Part shown: positions 13,870 to 16,800 of the stretch, one piece after another
How positions within the stretch are numbered: position 1 is the first letter of the stretch
Layout of the letters: every line of letters begins with the position of its first letter
Source: Escherichia coli
GTDB taxonomy: Bacteria; Pseudomonadota; Gammaproteobacteria; Enterobacterales; Enterobacteriaceae
DNA: 64,000 nucleotides
Strand: one strand, 5' to 3'
NCBI RefSeq assembly: GCF_002854065.1
Contig: NZ_CP024147.1
Position numbers: made by a program

Positions 13870-16800
13870 TACAAAAATGTGTAAATTCAATAAATTGCAA
13901 TTCACCTTGTAGGCCTGATAAGCGCAGCGCATCAGGCAATTTGGCGTTGCCATCAGTCTCAGTTAATCAGGTTAGGACGATTAACCCTGCAGCAGAGACA
14001 GAACCTGCTGCGGTACCTGGTTGGCTTTTGCCAGCACGGAGTTACCGGCCTGCTGGATAATCTGCGCTTTCGACATGTTGGACACTTCGGTCGCATAGTC
14101 GGCGTCCTGAATACGGGACTGCGCTTCGGACAGGTTGGTAGTGGTGTTGTTCAGGTTGGTAACCGCGGAATCCAGACGGTTCTGGATAGCACCCAGGGAT
14201 GAACGGAATTTGTCGATGGAGCTGATAGCTTCATCCAGGGCAGCCAGAGGATCTTTGGTTGCAGTGCCTGCACTGGTGGTTTCAGTGGTCAGTTTGCCTG
14301 TAGAGTTAACATAAGCCTGTGCCCCAACAGTAGCTGCAAATTTACCAGTTGCACCTGCGCCATTTGAAGCTACAGTTACTGTACCGGTATCCTTATCGAC
14401 GTTGTAGTTGATAGTGTAAGATGCGGTTGTGGTGAGCTCTTTGTCTGCATCAGTATAGGTGTCATTCGAATTACCAGCACCATTAGTATTCACACCACCG
14501 AAGGACGCCGTTGCAGACTGAATACCTGTATTATACTTAATTGTCGCACCAGTAACTGCTGTGTTAGCCGTTGCAGCACTCTGCACTGTGCTCAGTACAG
14601 TATCAGCGCTTACAGTTTTGGTGTAGGTTACGCCAGAAGTTGCCGCTGCACCAAAGTTATAAGTTGTGCCAGACAGCTGGATAGAACCAGTTGTCGCTAA
14701 GGTACTACCGCTAGCAAACAGATCGGACAATTTCGCTGAAGATGCAATGCCGGCGTTGTTTGTAGATAGGTTACCAGTGGCGTCCAGGTACGCGGCTTTA
14801 CCACCGATGGTCACATCGCCATTAGCATCTACATCAAACTTCACATCACCAGTACTACGAGTATAAACACCTGATGCAGTAGTGCCAGCCGCTGGTTTCA
14901 GAGTATTCGCAAAGTTAACAACATCGCCATCTGCAACTGTTGCTTGAGTGGTGAAGTTCCCTTTAGCCGCATCATAAGTATAGATCGCAGCACTCGAGCC
15001 AGTAGTAGTAACTGTATCTCCGGTTTTCAGGCGAGACAGTGCATCGCTAGCGCTGAGTGCTGTATTGTTTGTGGTCACAGCATAAGGACCTGTTCCCGTT
15101 GCACCAGCAGCGGTCAGATCGCTGACTGTAGCAGCTTTGTTCGCAATAGTGCCTTTGCCATTAACGTTGAAACCATTCAGCCCCAGCGTATCTGAGTCAA
15201 TTTTCTTCAGATCAATCGTGATAGTCTGGCCGTCATTCGCACCAACCTGAATTTTCATCGAACCGTCTTTCGCCAGTACGTTCACACCGTTGAACTGGGT
15301 TTGACCGGATACGCGGTCAATTTCGTCCAGACGGGATTTGATTTCGTCCTGAATGGAGTCCAGATCCGAATCGGAGTTAGTCCCGGTAGAAGCCTGAACC
15401 GTCAGTTCACGGATACGCTGTAAGTTGTTGTTGATTTCGGACAGCGCGCCTTCAGTGGTCTGTGCAACAGAAATACCGTCGTTGGCGTTACGTGCAGCCT
15501 GAGTCAGACCTTTAATGTTAGAGGTAAAACGGTTAGCAATCGCCTGACCCGCTGCGTCATCCTTCGCGCTGTTAATACGCAAGCCAGAAGACAGACGCTC
15601 GATAGAACTCGACAGCGCAGACTGGTTCTTGTTGATATTATTTTGAGTGATCAGCGAGAGGCTGTTGGTATTAATGACTTGTGCCATGATTCGTTATCCT
15701 ATATTGCAAGTCGTTGATTACGTATTGGGTTTCCACCCGTCGGCTCAATCGCCGTCAACCCTGTTATCGTCTGTCGTAAAACAACCTTTAGAATTTTTTT
15801 CACAAACAGCCATTTTTTGTTAGTCGCCGAAATACTCTTTTCTCTGCCCCTTATTCCCGCTATTAAAAAAACAATTAAACGTAAACTTTGCGCAATTCAG
15901 GCCGATAACCCCGGTATTCGTTTTACGTGTCGAAAGATAAAAGGAAATCGCATGGCAAGTATTTCATCGCTGGGAGTCGGGTCAGGTCTGGATTTAAGTT
16001 CAATCCTCGATAGCCTCACCGCCGCGCAAAAAGCGACGCTAACCCCTATTTCAAATCAGCAATCGTCGTTTACCGCTAAACTTAGCGCCTACGGTACGCT
16101 GAAAAGCGCGCTGACGACTTTCCAGACCGCCAATACTGCATTGTCTAAAGCCGATCTTTTTTCCGCCACCAGCACCACCAGCAGCACCACCGCGTTCAGT
16201 GCCACCACCGCGGGTAACGCCATCGCCGGGAAATACACCATCAGCGTCACCCATCTGGCGCAGGCGCAAACCCTGACCACGCGCACCACCAGAGACGATA
16301 CGAAAACGGCGATCGCCACCAGCGACAGTAAACTCACCATTCAACAAGGCGGCGACAAAGATCCGATTACCATTGATATCAGCGCGGCTAACTCGTCGTT
16401 AAGCGGGATCCGTGATGCCATCAACAACGCAAAAGCGGGCGTAAGTGCGAGCATCATTAACGTGGGTAACGGTGAATATCGTCTGTCAGTCACATCAAAT
16501 GACACCGGCCTTGATAATGCGATGACACTCTCGGTCAGCGGTGATGATGCGCTACAAAGTTTTATGGGCTATGACGCCAGTGCCAGCAGCAACGGCATGG
16601 AGGTCTCGGTCGCCGCCCAGAATGCGCAGCTGACGGTCAACAACGTCGCCATTGAGAACAGCAGCAACACCATCAGCGACGCGCTGGAAAACATCACCCT
16701 GAACCTGAACGATGTCACCACGGGCAACCAGACGCTAACCATCACTCAGGACACCTCCAAAGCGCAAACGGCGATTAAAGACTGGGTGAATGCCTATAAC

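Follow-up and report, generated by a model that had tools for sequence, protein, structure and literature searches.

An intact fliC of a non-K-12 Escherichia coli: assignment to the H45 flagellar type and homology of its central region to the outer domains of H7 flagellin

Introduction

The analysed stretch of Escherichia coli DNA, 64,000 nucleotides of contig NZ_CP024147.1 (the window), carries a flagellin gene whose product has a longer central region than the K-12 protein. The locus raises the question of which flagellin type this gene encodes, whether it lies in a K-12 background, and which kind of fold and filament surface its long centre is likely to form. Here we address these points by comparing the gene, its product and its surroundings with typed genomes, protein databases and solved flagellin structures.

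Results

The gene is an intact fliC at the canonical locus

The open reading frame at 13981..15687 on the minus strand begins with ATG, is intact over its full length and encodes 568 amino acids followed by a stop codon; we annotate it as fliC with an H45-type product. A 568-aa flagellin had been proposed at this position in the first-pass annotation, and the ORF, Pfam and NCBIfam results all agree with it. Specifically, Pfam detects an N-terminal helical domain, Flagellin_N (PF00669, residues 5–140, E 1.5e-46), the enterobacterial FliC middle-region family PF12445 (residues 326–472, E 1.8e-21) and a C-terminal helical domain, Flagellin_C (PF00700, residues 482–566, E 1.5e-31), and with 814 bits the protein passes the NCBIfam FliC/FljB model NF005953 (cut-off 619).

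The surrounding gene order, tcyJ-fliZ-fliA-fliC and then the divergent fliD-fliS-fliT-amyA, is the K-12 arrangement and identifies the canonical fliC locus. The downstream neighbour is the sigma-28 gene fliA (12942..13661, minus strand; 239 aa), an ORF collinear with K-12 fliA that fixes the identity of the locus. The divergent neighbour is the filament cap gene fliD (15952..17358, plus strand; 468 aa); its ORF spans 15817..17358 and has MASISSLG at residue 46, and the ATG at 15952 gives a protein of the same length as K-12 FliD. The reading as a second flagellin locus, distinct from fliC, was also considered and was rejected, because the locus is canonical and almost all genomes that carry the central DNA of the gene have one copy.

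The protein can be divided into three parts, all encoded on the minus strand. The N-terminal D0/D1 helical region (codons 1–175; 15163..15687) is supported by Flagellin_N and predicted helices, the outer-domain region, which is hypervariable, exposed at the surface and determines the H45 antigen (codons 176–476; 14260..15162), by sequence comparison, structure modelling and Foldseek, and the conserved C-terminal D1/D0 helical region (codons 477–568 plus stop; 13981..14259) by Flagellin_C. D0 and D1 make up the filament core in established flagellin structures. The AlphaFold2 model predicts long helices at residues 2–40, 45–100 and 106–129, and together with those structures it suggests that residues 1–175 and 477–568 build the D0/D1 core; the N-terminal region includes the segment recognised by TLR5. 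In its layout FliC follows the mosaic pattern of E. coli flagellins, in which ends that hardly vary across E. coli enclose an allele-specific, exposed cassette of 301 residues that sets the H serotype.

The central region and the genomic background differ from K-12

We compared the protein with the K-12 H48 flagellin (b1923; PDB 8CXM), which is encoded at the same locus with the same promoter and terminator. The first-pass annotation had taken the K-12 protein to be roughly 498 aa long, with a much shorter centre. K-12 FliC is indeed 498 aa long, and the present protein exceeds it by 70 aa, all of them in the central block (301 aa versus 231 aa). Residues 1–175 and 477–568 are 93.7% and 93.5% identical to their K-12 counterparts, which bears out the earlier description of the terminal domains as canonical, while residues 176–476 are only 24.0% identical (55/229, with 74 gap columns). 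At the DNA level, a block of 900 bp (14261..15160) stands where K-12 has 690 bp, and blastn returns no alignment between the two. The centre is therefore unrelated in sequence to that of K-12 H48, rather than nearly identical to it.

The central richness in Thr, Ser, Gly and Asn that had been pointed out earlier is real, yet it does not distinguish this protein: these four residues account for 47.8% of residues 176–476 (65.1% with Ala) and for 45.9% of the K-12 centre (59.3% with Ala). Such a composition is about equal in K-12 and hence a general flagellin trait; like the canonical termini, it is a generic property and carries no diagnostic weight. Tandem repeats, sought in the fliC locus as a source of the extra length, were not found, nor did self-BLASTP detect internal repeats in FliC.

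The sequence outside fliC leads to the same view of the strain. About 60 kb is collinear with MG1655, with identities of only 97.8–98.6% and over 1,000 mismatches, and the flanks of fliC, at 98.1–98.5% identity, indicate an E. coli strain other than K-12. Additionally, the window contains an IS1 of 768 bp (23545..24312) flanked by a 9-bp target duplication, TAATTACCC, as a direct repeat, and yedS is an intact porin ORF whose K-12 counterpart is a pseudogene. The earlier suggestion that the sequence is not from K-12 MG1655 is accordingly upheld by evidence independent of fliC. A flagellin of the K-12 type (H48), or one closely derived from it, in a window from a K-12 strain, would account for the termini of about 94% identity and for the shared gene order; we give this reading no credence, since the centre is so divergent, the flanks differ at so many positions, and neither the IS1 nor the intact yedS is present in K-12 in that form. 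K-12 origin was rejected on the central divergence and the flank mismatches. The gene thus yields the H type of the strain, H45; taken with the divergent flanks, it also places the window outside K-12.

The closest complete genome is that of CUWW06, a Thai wastewater isolate, which is 100% identical over positions 1–23544 and 47001–64000 of the window and 777 bp shorter between these stretches, a difference that corresponds to the IS1 plus its target duplication. The background is that of an ordinary commensal or environmental-type E. coli.

The allele is assigned to the H45 type

H-typing of the central residues, which had been proposed as a check, gives H45 by way of typed and labelled genomes. 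The key reference is strain IAI39, which is O7:H45:K1, ST62 and phylogroup F (PMC8281228). Its FliC matches the present protein at 565/568 residues (99.5%), with identities of 100% over residues 1–175, 99.3% (299/301) over residues 176–476 and 98.9% over residues 477–568, and the central DNA is 98.3% identical; the differences are I235, V399 and E486 here, against T, A and D in IAI39. The second reference, MIN10, carries the RefSeq label O126:H45 and is 98.9% identical in the central nucleotides. We call the allele H45 because IAI39 is typed as such and MIN10, a carrier of the central DNA, is so labelled; the H45 flagellins of IAI39, CE10 and MIN10 lie at the same locus and have the same length of 568 aa. 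This is an in-silico criterion, resting on typed or labelled genomes and not on serology or on the type strain 4106-54, whose sequence, AY250023.1, is the H45 reference (PMC4753304). Literature searches for the accessions AB0284xx and AY250023 led to a single table, and a search by strain name found no serotype for the nearest strains (TUM18780, CUWW06 and others).

Two complete genomes, those of strain 100416 from a human and of CUWW06 from wastewater, have a fliC that is 100% identical in nucleotides over the whole gene, and six further ones reach 99.8–99.9%. The exact protein is UniProt Q9S0T5, recorded on 144 contigs, and its 90% cluster holds 297 members, including Shigella boydii, S. dysenteriae and S. 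flexneri; the listed members differ from the present protein by 2–5 residues. A search of 5,426 complete E. coli genomes with the central 930 bp identified 85 carriers, none of them below 97.7% identity; all other matches cover at most 11% of this segment, so that the carriers form a discrete allele class. Judged by sequence comparison, the allele is a known, already catalogued H45 variant.

We also weighed whether, instead of standard H45, the gene might encode a previously undescribed H type or a hybrid of H7 and H45. Two points could be read in this way: V399 is not seen in the other 14 listed cluster members, and the type-strain sequence stood outside the comparison. Even so, we hold this to be very improbable, given that the protein lies within 2–5 residues of its other cluster members and three of typed IAI39, that exactly this protein is already in UniProt, and that identity to IAI39 stays at 93–100% in every 60-nt window along fliC, with no switch toward H7. 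A novel H type was rejected on the three differences from IAI39 and the UniProt entry. We therefore regard the feature, with high confidence, as the chromosomal fliC of a non-K-12 E. coli carrying the known H45 antigenic allele. As such it is an ordinary case of flagellar antigen diversity and matters little beyond annotation.

H45 is a dominant H type of enterotoxigenic E. coli (ETEC) with CFA/I (PMC6446980). Carriers of the central DNA include TW11681, the archetypal strain with CFA/I, a finding that fits H45 though it is not a direct label.

The central region is homologous to the outer domains of H7 flagellin

Among the solved structures, the best match in both sequence and fold is the flagellin of enterohaemorrhagic E. 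coli (EHEC) O157:H7 (PDB 7SN4), a different serotype. In phmmer the H45 protein aligns with it over the full length (E 9e-201), and the two are homologous from end to end, with termini 97–99% and centres 45% identical. In comparison with Sakai H7, the identities are 98.9% for residues 1–175, 45.3% (131/289) for residues 176–476 and 96.7% for residues 477–568. H45 FliC is 17 aa shorter than the H7 protein; the central alignment contains 41 gap columns, and insertions of 13 and 11 aa in H7 have no counterpart in H45.

The AlphaFold2 model, built with 15 homologues, has a pLDDT of about 85–95 over residues 180–470 and predicts a mixed beta/alpha fold for the centre. Its best Foldseek match is again 7SN4 (3e-51), followed by 9N59 from Azotobacter, 7SN7 (H6) and 7SQD from Achromobacter; these top four range from 1e-33 to 1e-51, and Salmonella and K-12 types reach 1e-17 to 1e-23. 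Global comparison with 7SN4 gives TM-scores of no more than about 0.5, and r.m.s.d. values are 18–36 Å over multi-domain alignments, a combination that we attribute to hinge angles between domains that probably differ between model and structure. The centre of H45 FliC is homologous to the three outer domains, D2–D4, of EHEC H7 flagellin.

Specifically, the counterpart of the H7 motif at the D4 dimer interface lies at codons 302–313 (14749..14784, minus strand), as placed by alignment to 7SN4 and Sakai H7. The motif reads GNLSTNN in H45 and GNLTTNN in H7, and residues N306 and N310 align with H7 N319 and N323, so that both D4 asparagines are also found in H45. All outer-domain relatives examined keep its core, G(N/E)L(S/T)TN, which K-12 H48 lacks.

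These relatives extend to other genera. The flagellin of Atlantibacter hermannii is 64–65% identical to the whole H45 centre, and those of Achromobacter (PDB 7SQD), a top fold match, are 38–45% identical; the D4 motif is present in both. The outer region of the Azotobacter vinelandii protein (PDB 9N59) is likewise homologous, has the same motif and is among the top fold matches. In all three genera, D0/D1 diverge more from H45 FliC. A word-indexed search with the centre scored 8,000 candidates and yielded 17 matches, but was saturated by low-complexity candidates, and was followed by an exhaustive search of 1.84 billion representatives at 50% clustering. The latter returned 26 matches at E <= 1e-3, and with only 26 representatives the outer-domain family is small. 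H45 thus belongs to a small H7/H6/Achromobacter family of outer domains and has kept the sheath-forming motif.

A published analysis placed H45 in a cluster remote from the main groups of E. coli flagellins (Hu & Reeves 2020; PMC7018530), and its supplements make no mention of H45. This placement sits awkwardly with the homology to H7 at 45% central identity; the mismatch may stem from the clustering method used there.

The H45 outer domains may pair into a sheath

The sheaths of H7, H6 and Achromobacter filaments each have their own lattice. In these flagellins, three outer domains, D2–D4, pair into a sheath (Kreutzberger et al. 2022; PMC8931119). In H7, an ordered surface requires the conserved D4 interface containing N319 and N323, and the sheath lengthens tumbles and stabilises a waveform of intermediate type; the K-12 H48 filament is described as canonical, without a sheath (PMC8931119). 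By analogy, the outer domains of H45 would pair through the conserved D4 motif, with N306 and N310, in the assembled filament, and the paired domains would form a sheath like those of H7, H6 and Achromobacter. We consider it fairly probable that H45 filaments carry an H7-like sheath built through the D4 asparagine motif, with a lattice (dimer, tetramer or seam) possibly unlike those of H7, H6 and Achromobacter.

The long centre could instead consist of canonical, Salmonella- or K-12-like D2–D3 domains enlarged by insertions, with no sheath. The modest global TM-scores to 7SN4 leave room for this, as does the fact that no H45 filament structure is among the solved structures searched. Yet those scores come with the large r.m.s.d. 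values that we read as hinge-angle differences, and Foldseek E-values favour sheath-type filaments by 10–30 orders of magnitude. Moreover, the alignment of H45 with H7 spans the whole sequence, H45 retains the D4 motif that K-12 lacks, and the D2/D3 folds of sheath-type flagellins are unrelated to those of Salmonella (PMC8931119). On this evidence a canonical, unsheathed centre seems unlikely, if still worth some weight, and an H7-like sheath is the reading that we prefer. If it is correct, the altered waveform and prolonged tumbling of H7 would extend to H45 strains, among them the dominant ETEC lineages with CFA/I. Since H45 is common in CFA/I ETEC, a filament structure and a motility study of H45 would extend the sheath model to a medically relevant serotype.

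The regulatory elements of fliC are conserved

The consensus of sigma-28 promoters is TAAAGTTT-N11-GCCGATAA. From this consensus we assign a conserved class 3, FliA-dependent promoter to fliC, TAAAGGTT-N11-GACGATAA (15764..15790, minus strand), and a divergent sigma-28 promoter to fliDST, TAAACTTT-N11-GCCGATAA (15882..15908, plus strand), the latter being the sole match to the pattern in the window, where 0.05 would be expected by chance. The fliC-fliD intergenic region of 273 bp is about 99% identical to those of K-12, Sakai and IAI39. A scan for sigma-70 promoters gave no more sites than in shuffled sequence, as expected for a sigma-28 gene.

Downstream of the coding sequence, the 3'UTR contains REP elements and is the counterpart of the K-12 FliX sRNA region (13807..13980, minus strand), as shown by alignment with K-12 fliX (b4827); an Rfam scan of the locus gave only sub-threshold, REP-derived matches, to naRNA4 and ES036. 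The transcript would end at a strong intrinsic terminator, CCCCGCCACCGGCGGGG followed by TTTTTT (13790..13806, minus strand), for which the terminator scan reports 7 G-C pairs and a T run, and which is conserved in K-12, Sakai and IAI39. With both sigma-28 promoter and terminator conserved, the regulation of fliC is intact as far as its sequence can tell.

These results bear on whether the gene could be silent or decaying, as in Shigella or in relatives disrupted by insertion sequences. The same allele occurs in the non-motile Shigella boydii, S. dysenteriae and S. flexneri, an IS2 splits it in strains G1/2, G6/7 and G8, and flhDC lies outside the window. In the present strain, however, the ORF is full length, promoter, terminator and 3'UTR are conserved, fliA, fliD, fliS and fliT have their K-12 lengths, and no large gaps interrupt the alignment of the fliE-R region with K-12, all of which makes a silent gene improbable.

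The allele may spread by recombination at the conserved gene ends

The same allele is found in phylogroup F (IAI39), in Shigella, and in the ETEC strain TW11681 among the carriers, and the 3' flanks of fliC differ between carriers. For example, the 3'UTR described here has the K-12-like, REP-containing form, whereas IAI39, despite having the same allele, lacks this form and is missing about 150 bp of the 3'UTR. Between the two genes there are 38 nucleotide differences; the 900-bp centre accounts for only 12 of them, and nt 135–537, within the conserved N-terminal region, for 18. From these patterns of sequence we infer that the conserved ends of fliC recombine with local alleles. Homologous recombination at the conserved gene ends would then carry the allele from lineage to lineage, and diversifying selection by immunity or phages may drive its spread.

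Within one H type, little variation is seen in the hypervariable cassettes (PMC7018530). The distribution of differences from IAI39, with fewer in the centre than in the N-terminal part, fits this pattern.

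Distribution and placement of the H45 fliC allele

Three human isolates, G1/2, G6/7, and G8 (ecoli_genomes matches H9-H11), carry this H45 fliC allele interrupted by IS2, and the annotation there gives two flagellin fragments flanking an IS3-family transposase. H45-type fliC is also present, full-length or near full-length, in Shigella boydii, S. dysenteriae, and S. flexneri, which are non-motile, and the encoded proteins (P0006, P0007, P0009, and P0015, members of the 90% protein cluster around UniProt Q9S0T5) differ from the window protein by only 2-5 residues. Among the 85 ecoli_genomes records that carry the H45 central DNA, one is classed as plasmid rather than chromosome, which could be a mis-assigned replicon.

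The H45 flagellins were previously placed in a Firmicutes-dominated cluster, distant from other E. coli flagellins (Hu & Reeves 2020, PMC7018530). This clustering is at odds with the likeness observed here, where the H45 centre shares 45% identity with H7 and 65% with an Atlantibacter hermannii flagellin.

The fliC 3'UTR

The fliC 3'UTR (window 13807..13980; 4195..4362 of L002) corresponds to the region of the K-12 FliX sRNA and contains REP elements. This region is found in the window, K-12, and Sakai, whereas IAI39 lacks ~150 bp of it, even though its H45 allele is the same as that of the window. Given this absence, some lineages may lack FliX or carry a different form of it.

IS1 insertion and the neighboring loci

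A complete IS1 of 768 bp (23545..24312), containing insA (23600..23875) and insB (23794..24297), is inserted in a yedN-like/DUF5503 region, with copies of a 9-bp direct repeat, TAATTACCC, on either side (at 23536..23544 and 24313..24321). The insertion appears to be recent, since CUWW06, the closest complete genome, is 777 bp shorter at this site and otherwise identical in sequence. The window holds two yedN-like (DUF5503) segments (22598..23508 and 24342..26496), to which the single-copy yedN pseudogene region of K-12 shows 82% and 92-97% identity; this arrangement is similar to that of the paired T3SS-effector-like genes espR3/espR4 annotated in Sakai.

The yedS gene, a pseudogene in K-12, is an intact porin ORF in the window (48131..49273) and is annotated in CUWW06 as a 357-aa 'porin'; positions 48711..49259 gave no alignment to K-12 at the megablast level. 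Additionally, inside the yeeJ-like Ig-domain adhesin gene, the K-12 alignment of 62174..63070 falls into overlapping pieces of 85-86% identity, which suggests variation in repeat number or repeat sequence.
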